The notes beneath the pieces were generated by a model, which was not told where the DNA came from, did no database searches, and worked only from the letters and a program-made list of their open reading frames with translations. Of a stretch of 39,373 nucleotides of DNA, positions 3,087 through 31,340 are shown in pieces. Origin of the DNA: a virus (Duplodnaviria; Heunggongvirae; Uroviricota; Caudoviricetes); the IMG/VR virus record IMGVR_UViG_2534681996_000012; one strand, given 5' to 3'. The translations under genes and the position numbers were made by a program. Positions within the stretch are counted from its first letter, which is position 1. Every line of letters starts with the position of its first letter.

Positions 3087-3322
3087 AAAAACCACCGTTT
3101 AATGTGCATATGCCCCCCTAATTTAAGGGGTTCATCATACACAATAAACCACATGTGGTTAAACAGGTAATTCATTGTGATACTAATGTTAAACTCATTA
3201 CTGCCGAAAAAGTGTCACTGATTAAAACACGGTAGAGAAATTATTAACGAGTAATTTAGGCATAATTACAATATTTAAGTTATTAATTCACTGATTTAAT
3301 CAGTAAAAGATAGCTATAACAT

Positions 3323-3343
3323 ACCACCTCCCAAGGAGGTGGT
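3323..3343 (-). other. Perfect 9-bp stem-loop 26 nt downstream of tail-spike stop
   Basis: ACCACCTCC-CAA-GGAGGTGGT; on the minus strand followed by a moderately U-rich tract; possible attenuator or RNA-stability element between tail spike and lysis genes. Confidence 0.45.
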
Positions 3344-3368
3344 TTAGGAATAACAATAAAATATGTAC

Positions 3369-5384
3369 TTACGCACTTCGTAATAAATGTTTAGACATAG
3401 CAGCAATACAGAAACAAGATAAGTCAGCGTAATTTACACCATACATATCCGATTCTTTATCATAAGTAACCAGAGAATAGTCTGTAGGGTTAAGATTATA
3501 TTTCTCCATAATCAGCATTACTTCTTGAGCCATACATCCGAAGTGATACTTATCAGATTCTGCATCTGTCCATTTAAACTTTATCATGCTAATGGCTAAT
3601 TCTAGCCCTGCACTATACTCTGCCGTAGATATCTCATACACATCTTTACATCTACCGTCAGATGTTTGTATTACACCATTAGTTGCAAAGACAGTTTGCC
3701 ATCTACGACTAGATTGACCACAAGTTCTTTGATTATCTATCTGGGGGGCAACACTACCATCTATACGCAAATAGTTATCTTCCGCTTGTGCGCCTCCCAT
3801 AACACCTTCTAAAAAAGGCAATCCTTTGTGATTATTTACAATGAATTTATTGGAGGTATCTTCTGATATTCCGGTGCCAGCATCTGGACCTATAAAAATA
3901 TTACCATTTCCAGTTGGTAATTTTCTTCCTGCTCTTGCTCCTATCATAACATTCAGGTCACCTGAGGATAGGGAATTGAGAGCATCAACACCAATTGCTG
4001 TATTAAAATTACCTGTGAGAGTCCCAGTGTATGGGTTCTTAGTTGATGATACTCCTCGCAATGCTCCATTACCTATAGCTGTGTTATGATCACCTTGCTT
4101 TAACTCCCTACCAGCTGCATTACCAATAAGGGTATTTCCATTACATTTATCATACCCAAGACGTACACCTTGAGGGTCTGTGTAGATGCCAGTACGCATT
4201 CCTGCAGAGCGTCCTATTGCAACATTAGCTTCTCCAGAATGGAGTTGCTGCAAAGCTGACATACCAACTGCAACATTGAACCTACCATCCTTACACTCGT
4301 TTAGCGCATCCCTGCCAATACCAATCATGTTATTTCCAGTGGTGGCTTTCTTCAAAGCATTAATACCTATACTGATAATCTCTGTTCCAGAAAATGGCGA
4401 CTTATCTGTAAGATCATCTTCTAGAGTATCTCCTGACAAACCACCCACACCAACCACGATTGTGTTAGTGCCGCTAGTTATGTTGCGACCAGAACTTGGT
4501 CCAAGCAAAACCAATTGATTACCTTTACCAGAGTCAGTGTAATTTTTTGCGGCATCATAACCTAAAATAAGGTTGCTATGAGACTGAGCTACATTGGTAA
4601 ACGGAATTCGTTCCGCTCCTGTCTCTTTAATTATTTTTCCTGGGCCATAAAATCTTCCATTAATATCTTCCGGCAATAAATACGTGCCATCAGGAACATA
4701 AACACCTTGTGGCGAAGCAGATGCCGCGGCAATGAAAGCATCTGTATCATTTGTGACTCCATCACCTTTAGCGCCAAAGTCAAGAACACTGACAGTATCC
4801 CGCATCTTATCCTGAAACGTTCTATATACCGCGCCTGAACCATACTGAATAAACCAACCAAAACCACCAACAACCCCGGCGATTGCAGCATCGACATAAT
4901 TACGCATTGAGCGATTATTTACAGCGTCCTGCTCAAGTGATGGATCTGCAAGGTTAGAAATTCTGTTTTGCTTTGCATCGTAATATTTTGCAAGCAAAGA
5001 TGGTTTCATCAATGCACGTCTGAACCACCCAAAACATTGCTGGATCAGCATCGTCAGGTAGTCAAAGGCATCTTCATGCACTTCGGGGAAAAACTTTCCC
5101 TGATTGCGAAGGTCTGTCTCCTGCACTACATCAAGCACACGATCTATCGTAATTCGCCATCCAGCAGCAAGCGGCGACGGAAGAACAACAGAACCGCCAC
5201 TATAAGTGCCCGCCCCAGTTACCGTATAACCGGTATCCAGAACCAATTCTGTTACGTTCCCGTTCAGGTCAGACACCTGAACAACCAGGTCGGATTTTTT
5301 GAAAATACGGAAGGTATACGGAAATGATGTCGTAACGCCGTTACCTGTGTATTCGTTGTGGTCAACTTCGGTTGAGACCGTCAT
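3369..5384 (-). CDS. Tail spike/fibre: T7 gp17-like N-terminal adaptor, beta-helix depolymerase-like centre, C-terminal intramolecular chaperone (peptidase S74-like)
   Basis: N-terminus MTVSTEVDHNEYTGNGVTTSFPYTFRIF...LVVQV resembles T7 tail-fibre N-terminal domain; VLDFGAKGDGVTNDTDAF beta-helix signature; C-terminal region resembles autoproteolytic chaperone domains; RBS GGAG. Confidence 0.8.
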   Translation of the reverse strand: MTVSTEVDHNEYTGNGVTTSFPYTFRIFKKSDLVVQVSDLNGNVTELVLDTGYTVTGAGTYSGGSVVLPSPLAAGWRITIDRVLDVVQETDLRNQGKFFPEVHEDAFDYLTMLIQQCFGWFRRALMKPSLLAKYYDAKQNRISNLADPSLEQDAVNNRSMRNYVDAAIAGVVGGFGWFIQYGSGAVYRTFQDKMRDTVSVLDFGAKGDGVTNDTDAFIAAASASPQGVYVPDGTYLLPEDINGRFYGPGKIIKETGAERIPFTNVAQSHSNLILGYDAAKNYTDSGKGNQLVLLGPSSGRNITSGTNTIVVGVGGLSGDTLEDDLTDKSPFSGTEIISIGINALKKATTGNNMIGIGRDALNECKDGRFNVAVGMSALQQLHSGEANVAIGRSAGMRTGIYTDPQGVRLGYDKCNGNTLIGNAAGRELKQGDHNTAIGNGALRGVSSTKNPYTGTLTGNFNTAIGVDALNSLSSGDLNVMIGARAGRKLPTGNGNIFIGPDAGTGISEDTSNKFIVNNHKGLPFLEGVMGGAQAEDNYLRIDGSVAPQIDNQRTCGQSSRRWQTVFATNGVIQTSDGRCKDVYEISTAEYSAGLELAISMIKFKWTDAESDKYHFGCMAQEVMLIMEKYNLNPTDYSLVTYDKESDMYGVNYADLSCFCIAAMSKHLLRSA

Positions 5385-5488
5385 GTTAAATCTCCAGATA
5401 GTCGCAGCACCCGTTGCGCCGCATATCTGGTTATTCTATTACCTGAAAAACCACATATGGATAGAAATACTGTGAATATAAATAGATA

Positions 5489-5503
5489 TTACCTTTTAGG
5501 TAA
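5489..5503. promoter_or_regulatory. Operator-like palindrome TTACC-TTTTA-GGTAA in the tail-spike/accessory divergent region
   Basis: Perfect half-sites; 38 nt upstream of the LexA box. Confidence 0.5.
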
Positions 5504-5540
5504 TTTGCAAAACGTGCTGGATAGCAAACAAATTATTTGA

Positions 5541-5560
5541 TACTGTATAAATATACAGTT
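5541..5560 (+). promoter_or_regulatory. LexA (SOS) box
   Basis: TACTGTATAAATATACAGTT matches CTGT-N8-ACAG consensus with AT-rich centre (18/20 to TACTGTATATATATACAGTA); about 20 nt upstream of the 5581 ATG; degenerate half-box at 5470-5485. Confidence 0.8.
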
Positions 5561-5580
5561 ATTGCATGGAGAAGATTAAG

Positions 5581-5838
5581 ATGCAGCAGTATCACTATCC
5601 ACTGGAAGACGGATTTACCGAAAGGATTCACACGCCGGGAGGCGTCAAGTCACTGGTGGAGGGATCGCACTTGATGAAATTACTCCGGGATCTCGATAAG
5701 GATGGATTTAATGTCGATGGCCCACTTGCCGAACTGACTGCACTGATTAACTACGTCACCAGCTCACAGATGTCTATGCAGGATCTGCAAACACATCTCG
5801 ACTATTGTGCCGAACAATTACGAAAACAAACCAGATAA
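5581..5838 (+). CDS. Small protein sharing a C-terminal domain with the downstream Bro-N antirepressor; antirepressor-like regulator candidate
   Basis: ATG 5581 with GGAG 9 nt upstream (track start 5566 lacks RBS); IHTPGGVKSLVEGSHLMKLL...DLQTHLDYCAEQ aligns with IHSPSGVLGLTENSLLMNLL...DIQTHAEYIND of the 6152-6838 product. Confidence 0.55.
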   Translation: MQQYHYPLEDGFTERIHTPGGVKSLVEGSHLMKLLRDLDKDGFNVDGPLAELTALINYVTSSQMSMQDLQTHLDYCAEQLRKQTR

Positions 5839-5869
5839 GGTTTGCAATTGCCAAGTGGAGTGCTTATAT

Positions 5870-5884
5870 TTACCTTTGCGGTAA
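5870..5884. promoter_or_regulatory. Operator-like palindrome TTACC-TTTGC-GGTAA between the small LexA-controlled gene and the antirepressor
   Basis: Perfect half-sites; followed by hairpins and a weak terminator. Confidence 0.5.
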
Positions 5885-5978
5885 ATTTACATCGCACTCC
5901 TCTTGTGCCATAGTAATCGGGCACTGGCAAAATCCAGTGCCGGGATTGGCGTCCCGAGTTACTACAGAGGCACATATG

Positions 5979-5998
5979 CCGCATAAGCGGTTTTTTTT
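5979..5998 (+). terminator. Weak intrinsic terminator (short stem plus T8)
   Basis: CCGC-ATAA-GCGG followed by eight T; sits between the small LexA-controlled gene and the antirepressor. Confidence 0.45.
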
Positions 5999-6151
5999 AT
6001 GTGTAAAGCGCACCTATTCTATGGTGGGCTGTGTGGGGGCACCGAAAGGTGCGCCGGGTCCTTTGTAGCCGGTTACGCCAACCCTGCACAGTTCACCACC
6101 AACCGATTGGCGTCGGTAGTGGTGATTAACCTAACTACAAAGGTGATCACT

Positions 6152-6838: not shown

Positions 6839-6847
6839 CGGGCGGCG

Positions 6848-6870
6848 GCACAGGGATGTGCCTTTAAAAT
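6848..6870 (+). terminator. Stem-loop after antirepressor gene
   Basis: GGCACA-GGGA-TGTGCC followed by TTTAAAAT. Confidence 0.4.
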
Positions 6871-6904
6871 AATCATTGGCGATGTGATGTAGATTCGCGT
6901 AATA

Positions 6905-6919
6905 TTACCTTAAAGGTAA
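6905..6919. promoter_or_regulatory. Operator-like palindrome TTACC-TTAAA-GGTAA upstream of the toxin/antitoxin-like pair
   Basis: Perfect half-sites, 43 nt upstream of the 6962 ATG. Confidence 0.5.
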
Positions 6920-6961
6920 ACCTGTTTTTATTTTATACCTGTAACTTACCGGAGATTAAAG

Positions 6962-8030: not shown

Positions 8031-8036
8031 AAACAA

Positions 8037-8053: not shown

Positions 8054-8065
8054 GTGACATGTCAC
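8054..8065. repeat. 12-bp perfect palindrome GTGACATGTCAC (copy 1), embedding the stop codon of the 8062-8358 gene
   Basis: Identical palindrome recurs at 28286-28297 in the same relationship to a stop codon and a terminator. Confidence 0.7.
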
Positions 8066-8554: not shown

Positions 8555-11029
8555 TTATTGCGGAGTGACATCCTGTGGTCGCCACCAGTATGTCTGGTTA
8601 AACTCTTTCTTCGAACGTTGCTCCATTTTACGCAAATAACCTGGTGAAAAATACTCCTGCATCTGGTTAAAGATCATGTGATCGAGAGCCGCCTTCAAGT
8701 ACCAGAGATTCGCACCAGGCATCAAACCTTTCCCCAGCTTCACCAGATCACCACCAGTCTGCTCACTCTTCCCTTCCACAGCATTTAACGGTATGCCCTG
8801 AGCAATCTTCACTACATCATCAACCAGACCAGCTACCGGGCCAAGCATCGACGCCAGCGCGCCGCTCCCGTACCTAGTGTGGTCAGAGAAAAGAAAATCA
8901 CCGTACAACCCAGCCCCGCCACCTTTTAAAAATGCATTTATCCAGAATTTAACCATGTGGTCACCGGTCATTTCCTTTGGATTTCTCCCATTAATAAGAT
9001 CAGTAATCTGCATGGAAAGAGCACCAAGCATGGTTGTGCTTGCTAAAAACGTTGCTATATATGCTGCACGCCCACCAGCAGACGGCATACCCATAGCGCG
9101 TGACCAGTGACGCATAACAACCGAGATAGGGAACGATTTAAACAGGAAAACACTTCTCGTTAATTCACCTTTCCATGTTCCACGCTGAAGACCAGACCCT
9201 ACGAACATCTGCTCACGTGCGCCCGGTGTAATAACAGCCATATCAACTTCTTCAGTTACGGCACCGAGCAGTTTACGCATTGCCTCAAATTTCACGCGTT
9301 CAGGCTCACCAAGATGTTTAACTGCTGAATCAGGGATACGCATAATGCTTTCCGGTGTCAGCATCGTATTATTACCGTTCCCCCAGTCCTCCTGTTGCGC
9401 CAACTTCCATACGCTCCAGTCTGTGTCAGTAATCCCTTTGCTTTTCAGGATACGAAAATCAGAGTCATCGAGGCGACGAAGGTCTGGTGTCCGTGACACT
9501 ACTTCTCCCAGGCTTCCCATCATGGTTACGCCATAGGCGCGCTTGTGCGCATCTGACCATGCTGTAAGCCCACTGGCACGCATTACCGCCGTTGCAGCCC
9601 AACGAGACACAGACGGCCCCATATTATCCATCGCCCAGCGGTTAACGCTGCCAAGTAGAGATTCCATCGCCAGGCCAGCGCGGCGCGCCCGCGCAAGCTC
9701 AGTACGGTTCGTTGGGTCCATAGCTTCAAGCTGGTTGCGAAATAACTGGTTCATTGGAAGGTTGGTAACCTTCGCAGACAGATACATGGTTCCAAGATCA
9801 GAGAACGATGACAGCAACGCGGATCCGAGTCTGCTGGCAACCAGCCAGTTGCGGATATTGTCAGACCATCGCGCGATGTGGGGATTCGCTACAGGCTGTG
9901 TTTTTCCGGAAATAAAGTTGTACAAGTTCTCTGTTTTGTTCGCCAGACGCTCGACGCTACCGGTTTTACTCGGGTTAGCTGTTGCCGTTTCTGCCTTAAC
10001 CTGATCAAGAAGGGAGCGGAAAACATGATCGGGGTTTGGACCATATGTTTCCACCAGAGCAATATCTTTACTGATACCTTCCAGGTGACCGACCATGATT
10101 TCCCATAGAGAGCGATCGCCATAAAGTTGCTGATATTGCAGATAGGAATCTGCATCTTTGAAATGTATCTGTCGTGATGCATTACCACGGTTAGCACGTG
10201 CGCCGGAAATTCGCATTCCGGTATCAGTAAGCTTATTCAGCCCACCAGTAGCGATCGTGTTATAAGCCTCTCCAAGAAATGCAGACAACTCGGCATCGTT
10301 CATCAGTTGTCCATCGGCTCGGGTATAATATTTGCGATCCAGCTTACCTATAACATCGCTAACCCATTTATCTTTTGATACCGCCCCAACCTTTTCCATA
10401 GAATGATGTTGAGGGATCCCCCAGTTTTCGAGATAGCCAATGTCCCCACCAGCATCATTAAACCGGCGGCGGAGTAGATCTGTCACTTCTCTCCACGCCT
10501 TAGCACCTTTTCTTGCTTTAGCATTGCCAGTATTTTGCCCTCGCATTTCATATACCAGGTCACGCACGCCCGCTTCATCTTCAAACAGGCCAAAAAAGCG
10601 AGGATCAACTGCTTCGAATGCCTCCTGCAATTGACTCAATGCATAATCACGGGTGGCTTTTGTTCTGGATTCAACAGAGAGGAAATTAGATTTACCGTCT
10701 GCATTAAAAGCAATAGTACGGTTAAGAGCGCCAAGTTTCCCATCAGCCCCTTGATAGCTATTGATAAATTTATCCAATCTCTGACGTGCGGCTATAGTGA
10801 GGGCCACACGACGTTTCTTTAATGCCGCTTCTCGCTGTAATTCTTCAGATGCCAATTGTGCTGCACGATATAGCCGCTCTGATTCGGAAAGTTGTCTCCA
10901 CGACATCGGGTCATCACGAGCAATGGAGCGCATATTTCGATAAATGCGGTCTTCAATGTTCTGTATTTCTCGCGCCGTTAACGTGCGCTGCGCCGCCTGC
11001 TGGACCGCTTGTATACATTCCTGTCTCAT
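8555..11029 (-). CDS. Internal virion (ejection) protein, C-terminal part of a gp16-like module
   Basis: 824 aa; position after the other internal virion proteins and before the tail spike. Confidence 0.55.
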   Translation of the reverse strand: MRQECIQAVQQAAQRTLTAREIQNIEDRIYRNMRSIARDDPMSWRQLSESERLYRAAQLASEELQREAALKKRRVALTIAARQRLDKFINSYQGADGKLGALNRTIAFNADGKSNFLSVESRTKATRDYALSQLQEAFEAVDPRFFGLFEDEAGVRDLVYEMRGQNTGNAKARKGAKAWREVTDLLRRRFNDAGGDIGYLENWGIPQHHSMEKVGAVSKDKWVSDVIGKLDRKYYTRADGQLMNDAELSAFLGEAYNTIATGGLNKLTDTGMRISGARANRGNASRQIHFKDADSYLQYQQLYGDRSLWEIMVGHLEGISKDIALVETYGPNPDHVFRSLLDQVKAETATANPSKTGSVERLANKTENLYNFISGKTQPVANPHIARWSDNIRNWLVASRLGSALLSSFSDLGTMYLSAKVTNLPMNQLFRNQLEAMDPTNRTELARARRAGLAMESLLGSVNRWAMDNMGPSVSRWAATAVMRASGLTAWSDAHKRAYGVTMMGSLGEVVSRTPDLRRLDDSDFRILKSKGITDTDWSVWKLAQQEDWGNGNNTMLTPESIMRIPDSAVKHLGEPERVKFEAMRKLLGAVTEEVDMAVITPGAREQMFVGSGLQRGTWKGELTRSVFLFKSFPISVVMRHWSRAMGMPSAGGRAAYIATFLASTTMLGALSMQITDLINGRNPKEMTGDHMVKFWINAFLKGGGAGLYGDFLFSDHTRYGSGALASMLGPVAGLVDDVVKIAQGIPLNAVEGKSEQTGGDLVKLGKGLMPGANLWYLKAALDHMIFNQMQEYFSPGYLRKMEQRSKKEFNQTYWWRPQDVTPQ

Positions 11030-19805: not shown

Positions 19806-20141
19806 TTACACGCCCAGTTCTTTACGCTTATCTGCGATCTTCTCGCGGAGCGTTTCGGCTTTGGCGTTATGGTGTGGCTTCTCGTTAAAGAGCAATTCGT
19901 ACTCTTCACGGAGCTTATCCAGTTCACCATCATCTGACACATCGTTGATGATTTTGGTGCTGATTGCTGCCATTGACACCTTTCCTGCAACTTTTGCTTT
20001 TGCCTGTCTGGCTGCATCGTTAACAGGTTCCAGTGCGCTACCAGGCTCACCTTCGTATTCGATTTCTGCCCCCTCCGGCCACAGAGTGTTATGGATATGA
20101 GAGAGGCGCAGAACGCGGTATCTTGGTTTCTCACCTGACAT
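19806..20141 (-). CDS. Hypothetical protein
   Basis: ATG 20141 with AAGGTGA 5 nt upstream (track start 20150 is GTG). Confidence 0.5.
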   Translation of the reverse strand: MSGEKPRYRVLRLSHIHNTLWPEGAEIEYEGEPGSALEPVNDAARQAKAKVAGKVSMAAISTKIINDVSDDGELDKLREEYELLFNEKPHHNAKAETLREKIADKRKELGV

Positions 20142-20151: not shown

Positions 20152-20589
20152 TTAACCAGTTACTTTTGAGCGGATCGGATACGGCGTATTGGCATCAACA
20201 TCAAGACTGATACCAGCAGTGAATTCGCCAGCCGTTAGTGGGCCAGTTGCGACGGAGTAGTTAACACGCAGATATCGCTGAACACCGGCAGGCACCTTTG
20301 CAGAAACAACTCGTTTACCTGCTGTCAGGGCGGTCTTTGCCAGTGCGCCACTATCATAAATAGTGGTCCATGAGCTGTTATTCTCACTCGTCTGCAACTG
20401 GATGTTTACAGTTGCATCACCGCTTGCCGTGGCGGCTGTGCTAACCAGCACCCAAAACTCAAGCGGGTAACCCACGCCGATATCACGACGTTTTCCGTCA
20501 ATTGGACCGAGATCGATTACGTCAGTAGAAGCCGCGGTATCAGTTACCGCCTGTGCTTCGGAGAACATCAACAGTTTGTCGGTGATCAT
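20152..20589 (-). CDS. Hypothetical protein, possible capsid decoration/accessory protein
   Basis: ATG 20589 with GGAGAAAG RBS; immediately downstream of major capsid gene; Thr/Ser/Ala-rich. Confidence 0.45.
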   Translation of the reverse strand: MITDKLLMFSEAQAVTDTAASTDVIDLGPIDGKRRDIGVGYPLEFWVLVSTAATASGDATVNIQLQTSENNSSWTTIYDSGALAKTALTAGKRVVSAKVPAGVQRYLRVNYSVATGPLTAGEFTAGISLDVDANTPYPIRSKVTG

Positions 20590-20640: not shown

Positions 20641-21633
20641 TTACACCACGCGGGCTTCTGTTTCCAGAAGCGCATCAGTTTCACGGATTGGTACACCACG
20701 GAATGACGTCCACCACTCGCCTTCAGTCTCTTTTACGCTAATCGCCAGAGATGTTTTCTCCAGAGACTGCAAATCAAGAGCCTGGCCTACAGTGCGGTTC
20801 ATGTAGAACACCGGGCGCCCCATGCCACGGTTTGGAATGCGATGCAGTGCTTTAACCATCAACTTCGCAATATTTGCGGCAGAGGAAGGTTCTGAAAGAT
20901 TGCTGACATCGATGTTTGCAATGCGAACAACATAACGCCAGTCACGCAGAGCAAGTCCGTTATCCCATTTGTAATGGGTACGGTAGCCTTCGTACTTGCC
21001 GCCATTAGCATCTTCCAGTGTCACCTGGCCTTTATCTTCCATCTGAATGCCAGCCTTCTGCCCTTTCGGGAAGATGCCATGCACGGTGTTTTCGCCCCAC
21101 ACCACTAACCAGATTGAGGTGTTATCTGTACCCGTGCCACCAGCATCAATGATGTTCTGAGCATTACCTGCAGACAGGCTGGAATAGCGGGAGGACAGTC
21201 CCATAAACTGCTGAGGGTTAACGCTGGAATCACCATAAAACAGCGTCTGCGCCATCTGCTGATTCATCGCTTCAATAAATGCGCGGTCTTCAGACAGGCG
21301 GAATTCGGCGGTATTGCCGTTCAGATCAGCCAGTGACTTATCGACTTCAGCATAGGTTTCCAGCATGCCAACGGAATCGGTTACCTGCACTGTGGTTGAT
21401 TTGCTTGGCTGTACGCCATAGTTCAGCAAACGCCAGGTAGCTGAAGGTAAACCAGAACGAATGGTGGTTCGGTGTCCGGTAGGAAGGTTCCCTTCGACAA
21501 AAGGCATATCCTGAAGGATCGGGTTAGTTTGACCGAGAAGCTCGATAATCTTATCGACTTTCCCGTTTGGATCGACGCGCTTACCCCAGTCAGCCAGCGT
21601 TAGCGCAGTTAAGCCTTTAACAGCCATTGTCAT
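20641..21633 (-). CDS. Major capsid protein
   Basis: 330 aa directly after scaffold gene; GAGAGGAA RBS (the second ATG at 21627 is better spaced). Confidence 0.75.
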   Translation of the reverse strand: MTMAVKGLTALTLADWGKRVDPNGKVDKIIELLGQTNPILQDMPFVEGNLPTGHRTTIRSGLPSATWRLLNYGVQPSKSTTVQVTDSVGMLETYAEVDKSLADLNGNTAEFRLSEDRAFIEAMNQQMAQTLFYGDSSVNPQQFMGLSSRYSSLSAGNAQNIIDAGGTGTDNTSIWLVVWGENTVHGIFPKGQKAGIQMEDKGQVTLEDANGGKYEGYRTHYKWDNGLALRDWRYVVRIANIDVSNLSEPSSAANIAKLMVKALHRIPNRGMGRPVFYMNRTVGQALDLQSLEKTSLAISVKETEGEWWTSFRGVPIRETDALLETEARVV

Positions 21634-24533: not shown

Positions 24534-24623
24534 ATCAATGACTCCGTACGCAATTAAATTATTACCAATTTAACCACATATGATTTATTTATCGTAGACA
24601 GTTGACATTTAACGCACGAATTA

Positions 24624-24638
24624 TTACCTTTCAGGTAA
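24624..24638 (+). promoter_or_regulatory. Operator-like palindrome TTACC-TTTCA-GGTAA downstream of a TTGACA hexamer
   Basis: TTGACA at 24602-24607; palindrome sits where a -10 element would be; upstream of tRNA-Arg. Confidence 0.5.
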
Positions 24639-24960
24639 CCAAAGAGTTCATTCCGGTTACTAACCTGACTGGCTTGTCGTTAAATTGAACAGGTGGAGTG
24701 AGCTTTTATTTTGAGCAGTACGGCGTATGGCACATGCGCCGATAGCGGTCTGGATACGTTTAAGGGGCACCCTCCCTTGCTCGGGCAAACGAACCAGGTA
24801 GCCGGAATGTGCAAGTCGAGCGGTTTTATTCCGCGCACGGGGATTCACCATCCCGGCGATTCGGTGTGACGCCTCGGAAGAGACGAGGGTACAACGATGA
24901 GAGCATTTATGGAGCCGCGACAAAGTGTGGCGCCTTAACAGGCTAAGTGCTCTCAGCGTT

Positions 24961-25037
24961 GTGGCATTAGCTCAGTTGGACAGAGCAACCGCCTTCTAAG
25001 CGGTTGGTCGCAGGTTCGAATCCTGCATGCCACGCCA
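24961..25037 (+). tRNA. tRNA-Arg (anticodon UCU)
   Basis: Cloverleaf folds by hand: acceptor GTGGCAT/ATGCCAC, D-stem GCTC/GAGC, anticodon stem ACCGC/GCGGT with loop CTTCTAA, T-arm GCAGG-TTCGAAT-CCTGC, discriminator G and encoded CCA. Confidence 0.85.
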
Positions 25038-25200
25038 GAATCACACCTGAGGACCGTGATGCCAGAAGTTCCAGGGGCTTGGCGGTGATGGTTTCCCTTG
25101 AAGGACTACCACCGCCCTTTTTACAGCAGGACGCCATTGCGATGACTTCATGCTGTAAACCAGTACAGCCACGGAAGGCGGAACTCATTGCTTCCAGTTC

Positions 25201-25225
25201 GCCCGGTTCGTCCGGGCATTTTTTT
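25201..25225 (+). terminator. Rho-independent terminator downstream of the tRNA
   Basis: GCCCGG-TTCGT-CCGGGC followed by ATTTTTTT. Confidence 0.75.
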
Positions 25226-25230
25226 GCCTG

Positions 25231-25259
25231 ATGACCACAAATTACCTTAAAGGTATAAT
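25231..25259 (+). promoter_or_regulatory. Sigma70-like promoter (ATGACC-17-TATAAT) overlapped by operator-like TTACC-TTAAA-GGTAT
   Basis: Perfect -10 TATAAT at 25254-25259; operator variant at 25242-25256. Confidence 0.55.
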
Positions 25260-25284
25260 CATGAAAAACTTTAAGGTAATTAGT

Positions 25285-26109
25285 ATGTTCGAATCGTTCA
25301 AAGAGCTGTTTTTATCTACTGCCAATACTGCCGTGCATCGAGCTAAAAACCCTGTGCTTGGTGCTTTTGTTATGTCCTGGTGCGCCTTCAACTGGAAATC
25401 ACTTCTTTATCTATTTTTTAGCAAATCAAATATAATAGATAAAATTTCATACATCTCAGATAACAGCACATGGAAAACTGTTATGTTTTATCCATGCTTA
25501 TCTGTAATTACTATCTGCTGCCTATTACCATGGGTAAACAATATCATTAACGTATGGCAAGCAAAGCCTCTTGATAATAATGACTCAATCGAAAATCACC
25601 GGAAGGCAAGAAAAATACAACGTGAAACACGGCTACAGAGATTGCTGGCTAAAAAAGACATTACTTACGAAAAAGTAAAAACAGGCGCTGAAAAAAACAT
25701 TCAAGACATGAAAGAGGAAATAATTCTTTCAAAAGACAGAATGGGACAACTCACATCTGAATTGAAAGAGAGGGAGACAGAACTGCGCGCAGAACAAGCT
25801 CGTATTTTAGAATTATCTAAGGTTATTGATGAAACAACATCTAAACTAGAAAATCTAGAAAAAGCTCACAAAAATTTAAAAAACGAATATGAGTCCTATA
25901 AGAAAAACATTCCTTTGGCAACAAATAATACAATTGCTAATGGGCTTGTAGGTCTAAAATCATTACAAGACCTTAATGAGTCCGTAAAGAAACTTGGCGT
26001 TACTGGAATTAACAATCCAGAAATCAATACATTATTGAATAATCCTCTAGTAAATATAAATGGTGGTTTAAATTCCACCTATCAAAGAAAATTAAAAACA
26101 CAAAAGTAA
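25285..26109 (+). CDS. AT-rich accessory protein: two N-terminal TM helices plus long C-terminal coiled coil
   Basis: ATG 25285 with AAGGT 7 nt upstream (track start 25231 lies upstream of the predicted promoter); hydrophobic segments VLGAFVMSWCAFNWKSLLYLFF and VMFYPCLSVITICCLLPW; K/E-rich heptad-like C-half; stop 3 nt from the convergent terL stop. Confidence 0.55.
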   Translation: MFESFKELFLSTANTAVHRAKNPVLGAFVMSWCAFNWKSLLYLFFSKSNIIDKISYISDNSTWKTVMFYPCLSVITICCLLPWVNNIINVWQAKPLDNNDSIENHRKARKIQRETRLQRLLAKKDITYEKVKTGAEKNIQDMKEEIILSKDRMGQLTSELKERETELRAEQARILELSKVIDETTSKLENLEKAHKNLKNEYESYKKNIPLATNNTIANGLVGLKSLQDLNESVKKLGVTGINNPEINTLLNNPLVNINGGLNSTYQRKLKTQK

Positions 26110-26112
26110 AAA

Positions 26113-27582
26113 TCATTCAAATGGGTCATAGTCTGTTATAGCCCTGCCCTGCTGCTGCCGTGGGTCATTAGTTTTCTTGGCTACCGGGAAAGCAAACGTC
26201 AGCAGTAGCGCATCGCCTTTACCCGGCGAACGCCCAAGCCGCTCTTTGATATCTTCCTTCGGTTCGATAACGATTTTACCGTCCACACGAACTTTGTACT
26301 CTGCCGCCGACAGGTCATCCGCTGTTTCCTGGTCATCCAGCATCCCGCCGAGCCTCAGCCATGTCTTGCATGAGTTGAACATCTCCCCGCGCTTGTTAAG
26401 CATCTGCGGGTCAGTAGACGCGCCACCGAACGGAACAAGTTGCCATGTACGGCCCCAGCCATCACCGATTGACTTCAGACCGGTTCCGTAACCGAAGTCG
26501 ATGAACACCGCGTCAGCCTGATACTGGTCTTCAAAGTCAGCGATACGCTTCGCCATAATCAGATCGTCGGTGGTCTTGTTACCAGTCCATAGCACCTTAC
26601 TGTGCAGCCCCTGCCGCAGGTATATCACAGCGTCATCAACGCCGGAGTATGCCGGGTCAACGCCGATTATCACCGGAGCATGTGCCACCTGCGCAGCGGT
26701 GACCACCCGTTTCATTGCCTCGTCAGTAAGTCCGGTAGGGATAAACTGCAATTCAGATGCATCCGGGAATATGCCGCGCACACGGATTTTAACGAAGTCG
26801 CTGTCTTCCCCGTAGTCATCAACCCATTTCTGCAACTGCTGTTTGTTGGTGCCTTCCACCGTCCGGCTGTCAATCTGCGCAGTTTTCCAGCGGTGTTTAT
26901 ATTTGCGGAAACATTCGCGGAAACGCCCGGTGTTACGTGTAGGGTTTCCGAACGCCACCCAGATAATCTCAGTGTCTTCGTCCGTTAGCGCCCCCTCAGC
27001 AACTTCCCACACCAGATCCGCAATGTTCGACGCTTCATCGAATACCACGATGATGCGTTTGCGCTCGTTGTGTAGTCCGGCGAATGCCTCAGTGTTGTGC
27101 TCAGACCAGGGGATTGCGTCAGCTCGCCACCGCTTGTCGTGCCCAGGATCATTGCTGTACATCGCGGTAGCGGTACAGGTAAACCAGTCTTTCGTGATAG
27201 CAAGGTTCGACCACTTGATAATTTCCGGCCAGGTCTTCGTTCGTAGCTGGTTGTCGGTGTTGGCGGTCACCACGACCTTACAATCCTCGCAAGTGGACAT
27301 GCCCCAGTTGATCAGCATTGAGATGAATGCGGATTTACCAATACCGTGACCAGAAGCGCGTGCCAGCATAAGCGGCTGATAGCGCGTCTCTGGATTCTGC
27401 AGGTGATCACGTATCTCTCGGAACGCATCAGCCTGCCACTGACGTGGGCCGGTAGCATGTGCCAGTTCAGTCCCCTCTTCCCCCCACGGGAACGCATAGA
27501 GGGCATAGCCAAGCGGATCGTGAGTGAACCCTGCAATATCCTCGATCAACTGCTCTTCAGGAGATAACGCTGTATCTGTCAC
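26113..27582 (-). CDS. Terminase large subunit
   Basis: 489 aa; P-loop-like SGHGIGKS; C-terminal nuclease-like region VIIGVDPAYSGVDD; overlaps small-subunit gene by 4 nt. Confidence 0.9.
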   Translation of the reverse strand: MTDTALSPEEQLIEDIAGFTHDPLGYALYAFPWGEEGTELAHATGPRQWQADAFREIRDHLQNPETRYQPLMLARASGHGIGKSAFISMLINWGMSTCEDCKVVVTANTDNQLRTKTWPEIIKWSNLAITKDWFTCTATAMYSNDPGHDKRWRADAIPWSEHNTEAFAGLHNERKRIIVVFDEASNIADLVWEVAEGALTDEDTEIIWVAFGNPTRNTGRFRECFRKYKHRWKTAQIDSRTVEGTNKQQLQKWVDDYGEDSDFVKIRVRGIFPDASELQFIPTGLTDEAMKRVVTAAQVAHAPVIIGVDPAYSGVDDAVIYLRQGLHSKVLWTGNKTTDDLIMAKRIADFEDQYQADAVFIDFGYGTGLKSIGDGWGRTWQLVPFGGASTDPQMLNKRGEMFNSCKTWLRLGGMLDDQETADDLSAAEYKVRVDGKIVIEPKEDIKERLGRSPGKGDALLLTFAFPVAKKTNDPRQQQGRAITDYDPFE

Positions 27583-28172: not shown

Positions 28173-28182
28173 CATAACCACC

Positions 28183-28214
28183 GTGGTAATAGTTACCGTT
28201 GTGGTAATAGTACC
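28183..28214 (-). promoter_or_regulatory. Tandem direct repeats GTGGTAATAGT(T)ACC just upstream of the terS RBS
   Basis: Two copies 18 bp apart, each containing GGTAA-TAG-T(T)ACC; sit between a terminator and the first late gene. Confidence 0.4.
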
Positions 28215-28217
28215 ATG

Positions 28218-28244
28218 CAAAATAAAGCCGCCATAGTTGGCGGC
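28218..28244 (-). terminator. Intrinsic terminator upstream of the late (packaging) operon
   Basis: On the minus strand GCCGCCA-ACTA-TGGCGGC followed by TTTATTTT. Confidence 0.65.
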
Positions 28245-28285
28245 AGTATTCAAAACCCATCAAATTCATCATGCATAATCTACTC

Positions 28286-28297
28286 GTGACATGTCAC
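28286..28297. repeat. 12-bp perfect palindrome GTGACATGTCAC (copy 2), embedding the stop codon of the 28294-28635 gene
   Basis: Same palindrome as 8054-8065; TGA stop occupies the same positions within it. Confidence 0.7.
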
Positions 28298-28635
28298 ACT
28301 ATTAATTTCGTTTCATGCCAGCCTTTAGTCACCCAGCATTGCGAGTCACCATTACACGGGCATGAATTAACTGGAACTCTCTCGCCGCACTTACCGCAAC
28401 ATTTTCTGCTGATCGATTTTATACGCCCGCGCACGCGTGCATCATCCTGGCGGATCAGTAACGCTATATACTCACCAAATTCGTAAGGCGCACGCCCGGG
28501 GCGACGCGTGGCACAGTTACGCTCCAGCATTTCAATTTCCTGAGCATCAAGCACAATTTCCAGCTTACGCACACCAGATGCAGCTTGTCTGGCTCTCTGA
28601 GCGGCTTTGCGCTCTGCTGCTGATTTAGCCATCAA
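28294..28635 (-). CDS. Small basic protein with C-terminal Cys-rich zinc-finger-like motif; late regulator candidate
   Basis: CCGKCGERVPVNSCPCNGDSQCW; last early-region gene immediately upstream of the terminator and terS. Confidence 0.4.
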   Translation of the reverse strand: MMAKSAAERKAAQRARQAASGVRKLEIVLDAQEIEMLERNCATRRPGRAPYEFGEYIALLIRQDDARVRGRIKSISRKCCGKCGERVPVNSCPCNGDSQCWVTKGWHETKLIV

Positions 28636-28906
28636 TATTCACCTTTATCGCGTACACCTTTACCGGTTTATCGCCGAAGTGGGGATGTGTGATTGTCTTG
28701 ATTTCATATCCGTTATACGGGACGTCAATTCTGCGGCTGGAATCGTCGCGCTTCGGATATCCCTTTGTGATAATCAGGCGGTCATACTCCCGGAACATAA
28801 TTCGCTTATTCCAGTAGTCATTACACAGGCGATACTCTTCCGTTTTCTCTCCGCGAATCATGGCATCGAAGTATTCACCTTTGACGGCAAGTTGCAGGTT
28901 AGCCAC
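28625..28906 (-). CDS. Hypothetical protein
   Basis: 93-aa ORF in tightly packed minus-strand early-region array. Confidence 0.45.
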   Translation of the reverse strand: MANLQLAVKGEYFDAMIRGEKTEEYRLCNDYWNKRIMFREYDRLIITKGYPKRDDSSRRIDVPYNGYEIKTITHPHFGDKPVKVYAIKVNIDG

Positions 28907-29450
28907 GGTTAACCTCCTGCGGCGGTTCTGGTAGTGGTATCCAATTGATTACATCGCATTCAGGTATGCTGATATCATCACCAAGCCACCCTTGACCTTC
29001 AGACCAGCATTGCACGTAATACCCGTATTCTGTGTTCACTACGCACCACTGCCCGTCATCCGGCATTCGCTCACTACAACTTATCCAACCATCCGGAGTT
29101 ACCGGAGAGTTGCCAGACAACGCGTTCTGCAACCGTTCAAGCTTAACGTATTCCTGAACCCTGTTTCCGTCGCACGCTTGAATCCATTGCGCGGCCTTTT
29201 GCGCATCAGTGTGAAAGGCACAAGTGCGACCGTCATCAAATTGCATTTCGTAGAGGTCAGCAACCTGTTCAAACTGCGTGTGTGGCAACTTGTAAGTTTG
29301 GCTTACAGTCTCGACTTCCAGCGATGCCAGTGCAATTCGTGCCAGTTCCCTAAGATTTTCGCTATATGGTGAAGTATTATCACGATTGATTATGTGATTA
29401 GCTGTATCTATGAGAACTTGCTTTTGTTCTTCTCTGGTCATAGTGGTCAT
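28899..29450 (-). CDS. Hypothetical protein, DUF551-like C-terminus
   Basis: C-terminal NWIPLPEPP motif recalled from DUF551 phage proteins. Confidence 0.45.
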   Translation of the reverse strand: MTTMTREEQKQVLIDTANHIINRDNTSPYSENLRELARIALASLEVETVSQTYKLPHTQFEQVADLYEMQFDDGRTCAFHTDAQKAAQWIQACDGNRVQEYVKLERLQNALSGNSPVTPDGWISCSERMPDDGQWCVVNTEYGYYVQCWSEGQGWLGDDISIPECDVINWIPLPEPPQEVNRG

Positions 29451-29451
29451 A

Positions 29452-29751
29452 TCACATCACCCTGAAGCCGTTGCATTTACGTAAGAAATCGCAGATATAG
29501 CCCTTCATTTTTTCATGCCAATCTCGATCATTCCCATTGCACCAACCATCAGGTGGAGTCCAGTTTTCTATCAGAGCAACCATTTTCTTTGCTTTCGCCG
29601 GAGTAGCTGTTGCGGTATCGCAGTAATGACGAGTGTCAACCAACGCATCCATACCATCGATATCAAGTACGCAAAACCATGTGTGATTCGGCATTCCAAC
29701 AGATGGTATTTGTTGCCCACGTCGACGTTTATCAATAAGACATACAGTCAT
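29452..29751 (-). CDS. Hypothetical protein
   Basis: 99-aa ORF, overlapping starts/stops with neighbours. Confidence 0.4.
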   Translation of the reverse strand: MTVCLIDKRRRGQQIPSVGMPNHTWFCVLDIDGMDALVDTRHYCDTATATPAKAKKMVALIENWTPPDGWCNGNDRDWHEKMKGYICDFLRKCNGFRVM

Positions 29752-30293
29752 GGTTCCACCTTCTCTATTTGCTTAAGACCGTCTCTCACTGCATTAAGTA
29801 CGCGTTCCAGATACTGGTATTTCGGGTTTGGTGCCGTTGGCCAGTCGGCATACCACGGATCATCACCAAAGAGATTCAGCAGTTTGTTACCGACACCGAA
29901 ACAACAGCAGCTTTCTTTTACGTCATCGGCGTTTTCCGCCTCGTCCCACATTTCTCGAGCCTGTACCGCGTCGATTTCTCTCTCTCTTCGTAACTTTATG
30001 ATTTCTGACTTCACGAAAAGCAGATTTGCATCGTTGTCATCGTCGACCGTGCTTCGCAGTTGAGGGTCGAAATAGCCGATTAGATACTCGTTGCTGACCC
30101 GCTTAATGAACGTCTGCACATCATCACCGCCCATAGCAAACCAAGCCGCAGTCCACGCTTTTCCGTAGCAGGTGATGGTGATTCTTCCCTTACCAGGTTC
30201 GTAGTTTTCAATCATCACTCTAACCGGATCTAGTCGCTCTGCACCGGTTATAACGAATGACAACACATCAATCTTTTCAACCGTTACACTCAC
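29748..30293 (-). CDS. Hypothetical protein
   Basis: 181-aa ORF in nin-like region. Confidence 0.45.
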   Translation of the reverse strand: MSVTVEKIDVLSFVITGAERLDPVRVMIENYEPGKGRITITCYGKAWTAAWFAMGGDDVQTFIKRVSNEYLIGYFDPQLRSTVDDDNDANLLFVKSEIIKLRREREIDAVQAREMWDEAENADDVKESCCCFGVGNKLLNLFGDDPWYADWPTAPNPKYQYLERVLNAVRDGLKQIEKVEP

Positions 30294-30817
30294 TGGTTGC
30301 CTCCTTTGCGAAGCTCAGCGGCGAAGGCTACTGCGTGATCATGATGTTCAAGTGTGTATGCACACTCCGCAAACATCTCCACGCCCTGCGCTCGTACTTC
30401 AGCCAGGAAAGCATCGGTGGCTGGAATGGGCTTTTGTGGTGATATAGCAATGCGAATTGTCTCAAGGTCTGGATCTGTTTCCGCTGCTGGCACCTTGATA
30501 TAACCCATCTGCACCCCATTCATGATGAACCTGCGACGGTCATCACATATCGCCTTAAGCCCCGCATTCTCCGCTGCCAGCGCCGAAAACTTCTCGTGTG
30601 CCAACTTAACAGCCGCATCAGCCTGCTTAATTGATTCAATCGCTTTCTGGTGGTCTTCGGCCAGCGCATTAGCACGCACCAGTTGCACTTCCAGTTGCGT
30701 TGCCAAATCGCTGAGCAGCTTTGCCACACTACGCATATCAACGGCACCACATTCAGCTTTCAGTTCCGAAGCCATCTCATGCCCGGCGGAAACTAACCCT
30801 TTGATATTACTTTCCAT
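30290..30817 (-). CDS. Hypothetical protein
   Basis: 175-aa ORF in nin-like region. Confidence 0.45.
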   Translation of the reverse strand: MESNIKGLVSAGHEMASELKAECGAVDMRSVAKLLSDLATQLEVQLVRANALAEDHQKAIESIKQADAAVKLAHEKFSALAAENAGLKAICDDRRRFIMNGVQMGYIKVPAAETDPDLETIRIAISPQKPIPATDAFLAEVRAQGVEMFAECAYTLEHHDHAVAFAAELRKGGNQ

Positions 30818-30878
30818 CTTTACCCTCGCTTATCCACATAACTTATTGATTACATTGATAACTAAAAAGATCGTCGAT

Positions 30879-31223
30879 TCAGAACTCTTCGATGTTCCAG
30901 CCACCACCTGCTTTCTTTGGTTTAACCGTTACCCCGATGATTCGGAACGGATACTGATCTGCGGCGACTTTGGTTTTCACCCTGGCGTCGTCGGTCCAGA
31001 AACCTTTCACTTCGTGCAGTTCCATCTCGCCGGTGGCGAGCATCACAGCAAAATCGGGCGTATAGAACGTGTTGTCAGCTAACCGCAGCTTGATACCCTC
31101 AAATCGATACCAGGCTATTTCCCCTGCACGTTTACGCAGCTCAAGGTGCTGGCAATACGCAGATTCTGTTTTGTTCATCTGGCCTGTTTTGAGTCGACCA
31201 AGAGCCTGTATCTGTTTTCTCAT
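30879..31223 (-). CDS. Hypothetical protein, DUF1064-like
   Basis: 114 aa; YTPDF motif; RBS overlapped by operator-like palindrome. Confidence 0.4.
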   Translation of the reverse strand: MRKQIQALGRLKTGQMNKTESAYCQHLELRKRAGEIAWYRFEGIKLRLADNTFYTPDFAVMLATGEMELHEVKGFWTDDARVKTKVAADQYPFRIIGVTVKPKKAGGGWNIEEF

Positions 31224-31226
31224 GAT

Positions 31227-31241
31227 TTACCCCTGAGGTAA
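31227..31241. promoter_or_regulatory. Operator-like palindrome TTACC-CCTGA-GGTAA overlapping the RBS of the 30879-31223 gene
   Basis: Perfect half-sites; imperfect copy TTATC-TAACA-GGTAA at 31289-31303. Confidence 0.5.
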
Positions 31242-31340
31242 TTAAAAACCACATAAGACACGAAATCAATAGATTTTAGAATACTTTATTATCTAACAGG
31301 TAATTATCGAAACGTAAAAAAATGCGCTATCGCGCTGGTA

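Follow-up and report, generated by a model that had tools for sequence, protein, structure and literature searches.

A 14-bp imperfect palindrome beside Rep operators at the heads of transcription units in a phiV10/epsilon15-like prophage: a predicted promoter-proximal protein-binding site

The stretch of DNA analysed here (the window; 39,373 nucleotides) is a prophage of the phiV10/epsilon15-like type (Uetakevirus) with its late genes on the minus strand. The operator of its repressor Rep, TTACC-N5-GGTAA, occurs 13 times in the window against 0.59 expected, and the epsilon15 GenBank record annotates the same sites as repressor binding sites, which bears out the reading of the pentamers TTACC and GGTAA as operator half-sites in a first-pass annotation of this DNA. 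What stays constant beside these operators is an imperfect palindrome of 14 bp, AWYCA-N4-TGGTT (in summary form AACCA-N4-TGGTT). The relevant features, with strand where assigned, are:

3134-3146, minus strand: tandem -10-like hexamers TATTGT-G-TATGAT, directly after site 1
3147-3160: site 1, AACCACATGTGGTT, a perfect palindrome heading the lysis cassette, whose genes are on the minus strand
3166-3170, minus strand: Rep half-operator TTACC, 5 bp from site 1 on the side opposite the lysis genes
5433-5443, minus strand: GGTAATAGAAT, half-site GGTAA(T) overlapping -10-like TAATAG and TAGAAT, 5 bp after site 2
5449-5462, minus strand: site 2, ATCCATATGTGGTT, head of the tailspike gene
5489-5503: full Rep operator TTACCTTTTAGGTAA, tailspike junction
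5829-5842: site 6, AACCAGATAAGGTT, abutting the -35 of the leftward promoter TTGCAA-17-TATATT
5870-5884: Rep operator downstream of that promoter, isrK/C4/ant region
24556-24566, minus strand: GGTAATAATTT, half-operator and -10-like hexamers, 5 bp after site 3
24572-24585, minus strand: site 3, AATCATATGTGGTT, head of the gp3/portal/structural unit
24624-24638: full Rep operator overlapping the -10 of the leftward promoter TTGACA-17-TACCTT
31227-31241: full Rep operator over the p45 ribosome-binding site, 5 bp after site 4
31247-31260, minus strand: site 4, TGTCTTATGTGGTT, head of the p45 (DUF1064)/nin-like unit, only the right half conserved
31289-31303: distal Rep operator with one mismatch, 62 bp centre-to-centre from 31227-31241
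33216-33229: site 5, AACCAAATCTGGTT (minus strand), head of the p42/replication unit
33235-33249: operator-like TTACCTTTGAGGTGC, 5 bp from site 5
34375-34388: site 7, AACCAAATACGCAT, a half copy within the spacer of PL (early promoter, TTGACA-17-AATCAT)
34394-34408: Rep operator at PL, 5 bp beyond the half copy

AWYCA-N4-TGGTT is found at five distinct loci of the window (seven strand hits versus 0.46 expected), and a weight matrix built from other genomes recovers six loci versus 1.1 expected, with no locus in the unrelated phages ZF40 and AH07. All copies fall within the non-coding 7.4% of the prophage, that at 5829-5842 partially overlapping a gene by running into its last codons. Joined to a pentamer, TGGTT-N5-GGTAA has four hits and TGGTT-N5-TTACC two (0.03 expected for each), and AACCACAT occurs five times against an expectation of 1.6. 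The first-pass annotation had described four copies of a longer composite, TTACC-N5-AACCACATRTG, at transcription-unit junctions. The four stretches are present at the coordinates given there and all lie at unit heads (lysis, tailspike, gp3/portal and nin-like p45), but only three match exactly (minus strand, 3150-3170; plus strand, 5439-5459 and 24562-24582; 0.06 expected from shuffles, none of 100 of which reached four). The fourth, 31237-31257, does not match even with two mismatches allowed: its pentamer is GGTAA instead of TTACC, the right half of the complete operator at 31227-31241, and AACCACATAAG forms its core. This site shares the core, here beside a full operator, but not the composite. 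Missed altogether were the copies at 33216-33229 and 5829-5842 and the half copy at 34375-34388.

At the lysis head, the homologs of site 1 are AACCATATATGGTT in phiV10 and Tyrion, TTCCATATGTGGTT in epsilon15 and about 20 variants among 50 IMG/VR junctions, and the final T of both hexamers is unchanged across 50 distinct junctions; the half-operator at 3166-3170 is not conserved in epsilon15 or phiV10, a GGTAA or AGTAA pentamer often standing at N4-N6 instead in other phages (24 of 46 junctions). Site 2 is constant apart from position 9 in 52 distinct relatives, the spacer of 5 bp between it and the equally invariant GGTAATAGAAT being variable, and the operator at 5489-5503 corresponds to 19895-19911 of epsilon15, annotated there as a repressor binding site. 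Site 3 is almost identical across phiV10, epsilon15, SPN1S, Tyrion and BUCT711, and GGTAATAATTT lies some 25 nt ahead of the gp3 start codon. The operator at 24624-24638, centred 62 bp from the hybrid site TTACC-N5-AACCA, sits on a leftward promoter that leads to a tRNA-Arg cassette and is conserved in epsilon15, SPN1S, Tyrion and BUCT711.

Site 4 falls within the spacer of a promoter-like TTGATT-17-TTTAAT, and TTGATT together with the motif is unchanged in 66 distinct relatives; the distal operator at 31289-31303 has its counterpart in the annotated repressor site at 35906-35922 of epsilon15. Site 5, directly beyond the cro-trailing terminator and overlapping a -35-like TTGATC, is kept in phiV10, epsilon15, SPN1S, Tyrion and BUCT711, with all four bases at position 9 among 38 relatives. 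Site 6 has counterparts in phiV10 (20539-20552) and Tyrion (21435-21448), and the promoter that it abuts leads through the Rep operator at 5870-5884 to the isrK/C4 RNAs and the ant gene. The homolog of site 7 in the Tyrion PL is a full palindrome; the PL promoters of epsilon15 and SPN1S have none.

This distribution does not agree with the earlier proposal that the motif marks late or middle promoters made necessary by opposite-strand cassettes interrupting the late operon. The p42/replication unit, too, has a copy at its head, another abuts the leftward isrK/ant promoter and a half copy sits in the PL spacer; site 1 follows the tailspike gene with no cassette between, sites 4 and 5 come after terminators within the early-right operon, and in TL-2011b the lysis-head motif is still present behind a co-directional oac gene. 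What holds of that interpretation is the operators, the unit heads and the conservation; the late specificity falls away, and interruption by a cassette is no general rule.

Conservation in related phages, on which the first-pass annotation had staked its motif, was found at the homologous junctions of phiV10, epsilon15, SPN1S, Tyrion and BUCT711, as well as in some 50 distinct variants from metagenomes, counts that overstate the evidence because related sequences are not independent. Across the six sequenced phages compared (phages of Escherichia, Salmonella, Enterobacter and Klebsiella), the palindrome heads the lysis, tailspike, gp3/portal, p45 and p42 units. In BUCT711 the lysis genes are fused 7 nt behind the tailspike gene, and that junction carries no motif. 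In a recombinant (L146) the upstream sequence differs, with the breakpoint immediately ahead of site 2, and the GGTAATAGAAT block is retained with the tailspike gene: the palindrome stays with its downstream gene. The homology of phiV10 to the window stops at 3163, at site 1. Breakpoints at the edges of these two sites, in a phage that encodes RecT and an exonuclease, could suggest that the conserved block is mainly a module boundary for recombination that swaps tailspike, O-antigen-conversion and antirepressor cassettes and has no regulatory role. We regard this as the least probable explanation: any conserved functional island should show breakpoints, the p42, p45 and PL copies are not beside variable cassettes, and an invariant GG beside an unconstrained centre within 14 bp is the mark of protein recognition, not of a recombination substrate.

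Among 40 variants, the GG at positions 11-12 is unchanged in all and C4 in 39, while position 9 can be any of the four bases. Of the two halves the right is strong and the left degenerate, and it is always the strong one that lies nearer the gene. An invariant GG around a free centre looks like the footprint typical of a protein site. Operators of the phage 434 type, which are bound by helix-turn-helix dimers and clustered in the immunity region, are similarly 14-bp dyads with the outer 4-5 bp conserved and a sequence-free centre; the palindromes described here, in contrast, are scattered among unit heads, and the immunity switch has none.

A host-factor site (IHF or DnaA), or an RNA-level hairpin or RNase III site, has a slim chance of accounting for the element. 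TGTGGTTAA differs at one position from the reverse complement of a DnaA box, but many variants have TATGGTT, which breaks the CACA core of that box. The palindrome is able to fold as a hairpin, yet its pair 2-13 is broken in 19 of 40 variants with no compensation, minimum-energy folds use it in one of four contexts (-3.7 to -6.3 kcal/mol), no site matches an Rfam family and none is listed by the terminator scan. The epsilon15 record does have IHF and RNase III sites annotated in the same junctions, but the IHF sites do not coincide with the motif.

The relation of the palindrome to Rep raises a further alternative. It lies typically exactly 5 bp from an operator half-site, and therefore on the same helix face; six of seven copies have an operator or half-operator at exactly N5, with a centre-to-centre distance of about 19.5 bp, near the 18 bp that separate the tandem Rep operators before terS. 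The palindrome could thus be an auxiliary operator of Rep itself, serving only to silence the units in the lysogen, with a Rep tetramer placing one pair of DNA-binding domains on TTACC-N5-GGTAA and the other pair, or a C-terminal second helix-turn-helix, on the adjacent AACCA-N4-TGGTT. Rep has a second, canonical HTH_3 domain (residues 106-147) and is homologous to SPC32H Rep (5D50/5D4Z), which, according to a passage in PMC9638917 that cites Kim et al. 2016, reportedly binds DNA as a tetramer with domain pairs in trans. In Psychrobacter phage pOW20-A, Cro and the N-terminal domain of Rep have homologs and the operators, TACC-N5-GGTA, are the same; the C-terminal domain of its repressor is different, and the motif is absent. 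That the motif sits within the PL and P45 spacers would also suit a repressor.

The flanking pentamers are the operators of epsilon15/SPC32H-type phages (ATTACC-N5-GGTAAT) or halves of them, and operator and palindrome share a 5-bp half-site, a roughly 10-bp period and an ACC...GGT core, with inner spacings of 5 and 6, respectively. They differ in length (15 versus 14 bp) and in half-site sequence and spacing, and the palindrome is unannotated in the epsilon15 record. Its consensus is stably kept apart from that of the operator, and PR/PRM, the main switch region, has two Rep operators and lacks the palindrome. The C-terminal domain of Rep is only 40-44% identical between the E. coli and the Salmonella/Klebsiella types and its recognition helix differs, whereas the motif is unchanged; 18 of 46 lysis-head variants have no adjacent half-site, and a purely symmetric operator does not predict a consistently stronger gene-proximal half. 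We consider the auxiliary-operator reading unlikely on balance.

The sites also have a promoter-like context. The threshold of a sigma-70 scan was reached only at PL and at the lysis head (TTAACC-17-TATGAT, a promoter-like site); the tailspike and gp3 heads were below it. PL and P45 share a geometry of -35, N3, motif and -10, the last T of the -10 being the first base of the operator, and at the p42 and isrK promoters the motif overlaps (or, at isrK, abuts) the -35. Relative to the best -10-like hexamer, and dependent on our choice of hexamers, the motif centre is not uniform: about -20 at PL, P45 and lysis, about -27 to -30 at tailspike and gp3 and about -41 at p42 and isrK. Non-random sequence, conservation and promoter-like context therefore point to a predicted protein-binding site near the putative promoters at unit heads.

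In their target promoters, lambda Q and Pseudomonas aeruginosa AlpA recognise elements placed between the -35 and the -10, and both depend on a -10-like pause element immediately beyond (PMC7969949, PMC9371919). The palindrome resembles these elements at PL, P45 and the lysis head, where it lies between -35 and -10 at the head of a terminator-containing unit and adjoins a -10-like repeat. It might be a loading site for a processive antiterminator that binds within the promoter, engages a polymerase paused at that repeat and makes it read through terminators both within units and between them; terminators do occur within the units or at their ends. The two conserved tandem hexamers of the lysis head would fit; however, such hexamers occur there only, and the second, which would lie at about -5 to +1, is earlier than known pause elements. 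Q binding elements are not typically symmetric palindromes, and they serve one promoter instead of five to seven. Nothing Q-like was found among the proteins of the early and nin regions, and the 82-aa AlpA-family protein of the phage is of the excisionase type, not the ~150-aa P. aeruginosa AlpA. This makes antiterminator loading improbable.

We conclude that the palindrome is most likely a promoter-level control site heading almost every transcription unit. Our preferred reading, to which we give a probability of roughly 0.55, is that a dimeric DNA-binding protein recognises it within composite promoter/operator modules that Rep would shut and a phage regulator would set. A module would consist of one or two Rep operators or a half-operator, the palindrome and a -10-like sequence directly downstream, and such modules would start nearly every transcription unit of phiV10/epsilon15-type phages. 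In the lysogen, Rep would keep every module closed; once Rep is inactivated, a phage-encoded regulator on the palindrome would set the promoter activity of the unit. We infer from sequence all three of transcription start at the modules, sign of regulation and identity of the binder; no candidate regulator could be tied to the palindrome, and Cro and p55 look unlikely in that role.

Where the palindromes are best and a usable -35 is lacking, at the lysis, tailspike and gp3/portal heads, we incline to positive control; the PL and P45 promoters have a good -35 of their own, and the element lies within their spacer. In the late promoters of phage P1, activated by Lpa, a short palindrome centred near -22 accompanies the -10 hexamer, the -35 hexamer is lacking, and several late units begin with this arrangement. 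The arrangement here is alike in repeating a palindrome with a -10 at several unit heads; the sequence is unrelated, and the palindrome is also in early promoters and beside repressor operators. Several points count against the regulator reading. Repressors, more typically than activators, have their sites in a promoter spacer, and the Tyrion PL, with a consensus -35 and a full palindrome, makes it harder to argue that the palindrome stands in for an absent -35. The non-uniform motif position, the motif-less PL of epsilon15 and SPN1S and the subthreshold tailspike and gp3 heads weigh in the same direction.

The ends of units are marked separately, by terminators and by a second palindrome, GTGACATGTCAC, which fits a genome of discrete units each needing its own start.

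The 14-bp imperfect palindrome A-W-Y-C-A-N4-T-G-G-T-T is a conserved, putatively protein-binding element that is coupled to operators of the prophage repressor (Rep) at the heads of transcription units. Positions 1162-39373 of the window align to Escherichia phage phiV10, of the epsilon15-related genus Uetakevirus, in reverse orientation, with 88-98% identity and some cassettes swapped, which places both the early-right genes and the late block from terS to lysis on the minus strand. Three leftward cassettes occupy the plus strand:

Plus strand: tRNA-Arg cassette
Plus strand: p24/isrK/C4/ant cassette
Plus strand: PL operon

The remaining stretch, 1-1161, is host-like DNA with two lipoprotein-like genes, and guaA adjoins a Klebsiella relative. 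Between terL and gp3 (24640-26185), the place of phiV10 p03/p04 is taken by a tRNA-Arg(TCT) together with a coiled-coil membrane protein of 292 aa.

The consensus matches five distinct loci (seven strand hits) in the window against 0.46 hits expected, and a weight matrix built from other genomes only recovers six window loci against 1.1 expected; the same matrix returned zero loci on two unrelated control phages, ZF40 and AH07. All seven copies, listed below, lie in non-coding DNA, which makes up 7.4% of the prophage, and in six of the seven an operator or half-operator (TTACC or GGTAA alone) stands exactly 5 bp away.

3147-3160, late-gene orientation: lysis head, AACCACATGTGGTT
5449-5462, late-gene orientation: tailspike head, ATCCATATGTGGTT
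24572-24585, late-gene orientation: gp3/portal head, AATCATATGTGGTT
31247-31260, late-gene orientation: p45 head, TGTCTTATGTGGTT
33216-33229: p42/replication head, directly past the terminator behind cro
5829-5842: abutting the -35 of the Rep-controlled leftward promoter of isrK, C4 and the Bro-N antirepressor
34375-34388: half copy in the PL spacer

Two further matches fall within genes and may be chance occurrences or internal sites: TGGTT-N5-GGTAA at 18368-18382, in a tail gene, and AATCACACATGGTT at 29675-29688, in a gene of the nin region.

The first-pass annotation had described a composite, TTACC-N5-AACCACATRTG, at four transcription-unit junctions. The sequence of all four stretches is as it reported, and three of them match the composite exactly, against 0.06 matches expected; the fourth does not match even when two mismatches are allowed. 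In place of TTACC it has GGTAA, which forms the right half of a complete operator (31227-31241), and AACCACATAAG is its core. The annotation's expectation of conservation at homologous junctions was borne out, and the last three copies in the list above are ones that it missed. Its reading of TTACC/GGTAA as an operator half-site is correct, as follows from three findings: the Rep operator TTACC-N5-GGTAA occurs 13 times in the window with at most one mismatch (0.59 expected), GenBank labels the homologous epsilon15 sites, ATTACC-N5-GGTAAT, as places where the repressor binds, and the window repressor is homologous to SPC32H Rep, whose structure has been solved. The flanks thus belong to the Rep operator family but the core does not: AWYCA-N4-TGGTT lacks the 15-bp operator dyad, and its match to the operator is limited to the flanking pentamers.

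The phages phiV10, epsilon15, SPN1S, Tyrion (Enterobacter) and BUCT711 (Klebsiella) all carry the motif at the homologous junctions, amid diverged non-coding DNA. Fifty distinct IMG/VR lysis-head sequences hold about 20 motif variants, and among the 40 distinct variants from all junctions the GG is invariant, C4 nearly so and TGGTT almost fixed, while the left half drifts and all four bases occur at the central position 9. Judged from sequence variation, this is the pattern of a site read by a protein, one of its halves being strong. The relatives compared were the best 80 loci per junction, most of which have protein identities above 92%; all of them keep the motif, and none among these is a distant relative with an altered motif that could be used for covariation. 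A hairpin or RNase III element was rejected, since only 21 of the 40 variants preserve pair 2-13 (broken in the other 19 without compensation) and 31 preserve pair 5-10. The invariant right half and drifting left half likewise speak against a structured RNA, and Rfam returned no family match at any motif site. Nor are the sites intrinsic terminators: the terminator scan lists none of them, and their stems consist of just 5 bp rich in A/T.

The element also travels with the gene behind it. At the tailspike head of 52 close relatives, the motif and a block, GGTAATAGAAT, are invariant and the five bases between them vary. In L146, a recombinant relative, an unrelated co-directional coding sequence lies upstream and the breakpoint falls immediately before the motif, so that the tailspike gene has retained both the motif and GGTAATAGAAT. 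In BUCT711 only 7 nt separate the tailspike gene from the lysis genes behind it, and no motif is found at that place; in TL-2011b, oac is co-directional with its own promoter-like sequence and the lysis head keeps the motif. These four observations tie the element to the downstream rightward gene.

Promoter context was assessed with a sigma-70 criterion of -35 and -10 hexamers 16-18 bp apart and at least 9 of 12 matches. This threshold is reached at the lysis head (TTAACC-17-TATGAT, 9/12), at PL (TTGACA-17-AATCAT, 10/12) and at the isrK promoter (TTGCAA-17-TATATT, 9/12). The candidate promoter of the p45 unit, P45 (TTGATT-17-TTTAAT), falls below it, and its TTGATT is invariant among 66 relatives; at the tailspike and gp3 heads the promoter scan found -10-like hexamers only, without a -35. 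Directly past the motif, the lysis head carries a tandem -10-like sequence, TATTGT-G-TATGAT, in which the final T of each hexamer is invariant in 50 junctions. PL and P45 share one geometry, namely a -35 (TTGACA or TTGATT), three bases, the 14-mer, and a -10 whose last T starts an operator. Both have a second operator upstream, and the two operators of each pair are exactly 62 bp apart centre to centre (34332-34408 at PL, 31227-31303 at P45). The distance from the full operator to the hybrid TTACC-N5-AACCA at the gp3 junction (24562-24638) is also 62 bp centre to centre; there the last GGTAA and the distal operator are spaced as they are in P45, and where the proximal TTACC would be stands the motif's right half. 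Operator pairs elsewhere are spaced by 48 bp (PR) and 18 bp (before terS). The motif and the -35 overlap in the promoters of p42 and isrK. The element is always promoter-proximal with respect to the predicted hexamers, and its offset from them is not uniform. From the first-pass proposal that the sites mark late or middle promoters, the promoter-proximal position at unit heads stands and late-specificity does not: the element is not late-specific. The observation itself is confirmed and extended, and its interpretation is partly supported. For phiV10, epsilon15 and SPC32H-type phages, we found no description of middle or late transcription timing in the accessible literature and no transcript maps in the literature searched.

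In placement, the element resembles the sites of lambda Q and Pseudomonas aeruginosa AlpA, where the factor binds between -35 and -10 beside a -10-like repeat (PMC7969949, PMC9371919). By sequence geometry it lies between the hexamers at PL, P45 and the lysis head, but not at p42 or isrK. Only the lysis head has the tandem -10-like repeat, whose second hexamer would fall at about -5 to +1; known pause elements occupy -1 to +5 or positions farther downstream (PMC9371919). Searching the small proteins of the early and nin regions against Pfam, PHROG and NCBIfam gave no Q- or AlpA-like antiterminator. In its details the motif seems not to fit this class.

Late promoters of phage P1 consist of a -10 and a palindrome near -22, have no -35 and are served by the activator Lpa. 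They would be the nearest architectural analogue, the likeness being one of geometry only. The motif is undescribed in the literature searched, a search that did not extend to the primary papers on epsilon15 and SPC32H, and a full-text search for the motif strings gave unrelated primers only. The vB_EcoP_ZX5 paper has four predicted promoters and gives no motif, and the features marked at these junctions in the GenBank record of epsilon15 are sites for the repressor, IHF, RNase III and integrase, the motif not being among them.

As to what might bind the palindrome, Rep itself is a serious candidate, through its second, C-terminal helix-turn-helix, which is canonical; SPC32H Rep is reported to bind DNA as a tetramer (PMC9638917). 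The same C-terminal domain, however, is only 40-44% identical across phages with an identical motif, and the PR/PRM switch lacks the motif. Psychrobacter phage pOW20-A has a homolog of the Rep N-terminal domain (38% identity) and operators of the form TACC-N5-GGTA, without the motif. This phage is a distant myovirus of marine Psychrobacter whose operators lie at PL and PR (8760-8805 and 9640-9710) and whose repressor has a C-terminal domain that differs from that of Rep. The Cro-like p41 is an unlikely binder, since pOW20-A combines a Cro homolog (48% identity) and the same operators with no motif. The 'transcriptional regulator' p55/gp49, encoded just before terS, was rejected as the favourite, because its homologs in ZF40 and AH07 occur without the motif and the family co-occurs with a palindrome of its own, GTGAC-N2-GTCAC. 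The zinc-finger domain of p42/gp40 is common in unrelated lytic phages, which makes the distribution of this protein uninformative, and it was set aside. An AlpA-like protein acting as excisionase on motif arrays at attP was likewise discarded, no arrays being found there. Across five phages the best-conserved small regulators are this AlpA-like protein (78-100%), p39, p24, a PerC-like protein and p55; none of them was tied to the motif. Among host factors, the IHF sites annotated in epsilon15 (2918-2940 and 19910-19932) lie beside the motif, and the test on WATCAANNNNTTR and overlap was negative; by eye, against their consensus sequences, sigma-54, sigma-E, CRP/FNR, RutR, PdhR, ArgR, DnaA and IHF showed no fit.

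A second palindrome, GTGACATGTCAC, is exact over 12 bp and was found at the following places:

8054-8065: abutting the bidirectional terminator at the end of the structural operon
28286-28297: overlapping the stop codon of p55; the terminator ahead of terS follows about 40 nt later
phiV10: 2262 and 19493
epsilon15: 2142, 19517 and 39612

Relatives have a third copy abutting the terminator behind terL. In the unrelated phages ZF40 (14944), AH07 (22826) and N15 (9270), each with a p55-family gene, GTGAC-N2-GTCAC lies across or right after the stop codon of that gene; in four unrelated phage groups the p55/gp49-family stop codon is embedded in such a copy. GTGACATGTCAC is probably the p55 binding site. 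It is similar to matS but has a 2-nt centre. Given its position at terminators, unit ends appear to carry a mark of their own, in keeping with a genome made up of separate units that each require a start.

We put at roughly 15% the probability of a wider reading, in which two DNA marks and two phage proteins would provide phiV10/epsilon15-type phages, as temperate podoviruses, with an undescribed start/stop insulation of transcription units. The start mark would be AACCA-N4-TGGTT fused to Rep operators at every unit head; its binder would be a small and highly conserved early regulator that either makes up for the lack of a -35 or loads onto RNA polymerase. The stop mark would be GTGACATGTCAC at the bidirectional terminators of unit ends, bound by the p55/gp49-family protein. 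Phages of the phiV10, epsilon15 and SPC32H type are models for serotype conversion, repressor/antirepressor switching and O157 detection. A conserved site at every unit head, coupled to repressor operators, offers a direct experimental handle in the form of five short DNA sites, and bears on how prophage cargo is silenced or turned on together with the phage, this cargo including the tRNA, the genes for O-antigen modification, and the antirepressor and its isrK/C4 RNAs. Were the element the site of a spacer-located activator, or of a second DNA-reading surface of Rep, promoter control would be unusual either way.

Several features of the surrounding units were also recorded. The terS start region is as follows:

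28173-28253, minus strand: terS start region, homologous to phiV10 41-120

With the terS start annotated in phiV10 (TTG, position 41), the gene would contain both a terminator (28227-28244) and a tandem pair of Rep operators (28175-28207); an ATG directly after the tandem operators (about 28175, minus strand) agrees with the terS starts of epsilon15 and Tyrion. In the antirepressor cassette, Rfam matches to the Hfq-binding RNA isrK (5921-5997, 74 bits) and the C4 antisense RNA (6017-6103, 79.5 bits) fall within the Bro-N antirepressor (ant) ORF, in its 5' portion, and the leader ahead of it, preceded by a Rep-controlled promoter (5842-5870) and an operator (5870-5884); position 5999, annotated as the start of ant, is probably too early. 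Just upstream of p24, the first gene of this cassette, lies a LexA box, TACTGTATAAATATACAGT (5541-5559), that is kept in phiV10, epsilon15, Tyrion and about 50 relatives. Finally, the leader of the lysis unit (3096-3133, minus strand) contains a stem-loop, GAACCCC...GGGGGGC, whose pairing is preserved with different sequence in epsilon15 and phiV10 (GAACTCACC...GGGGGTTC), and at which an RNase III site is annotated in epsilon15.
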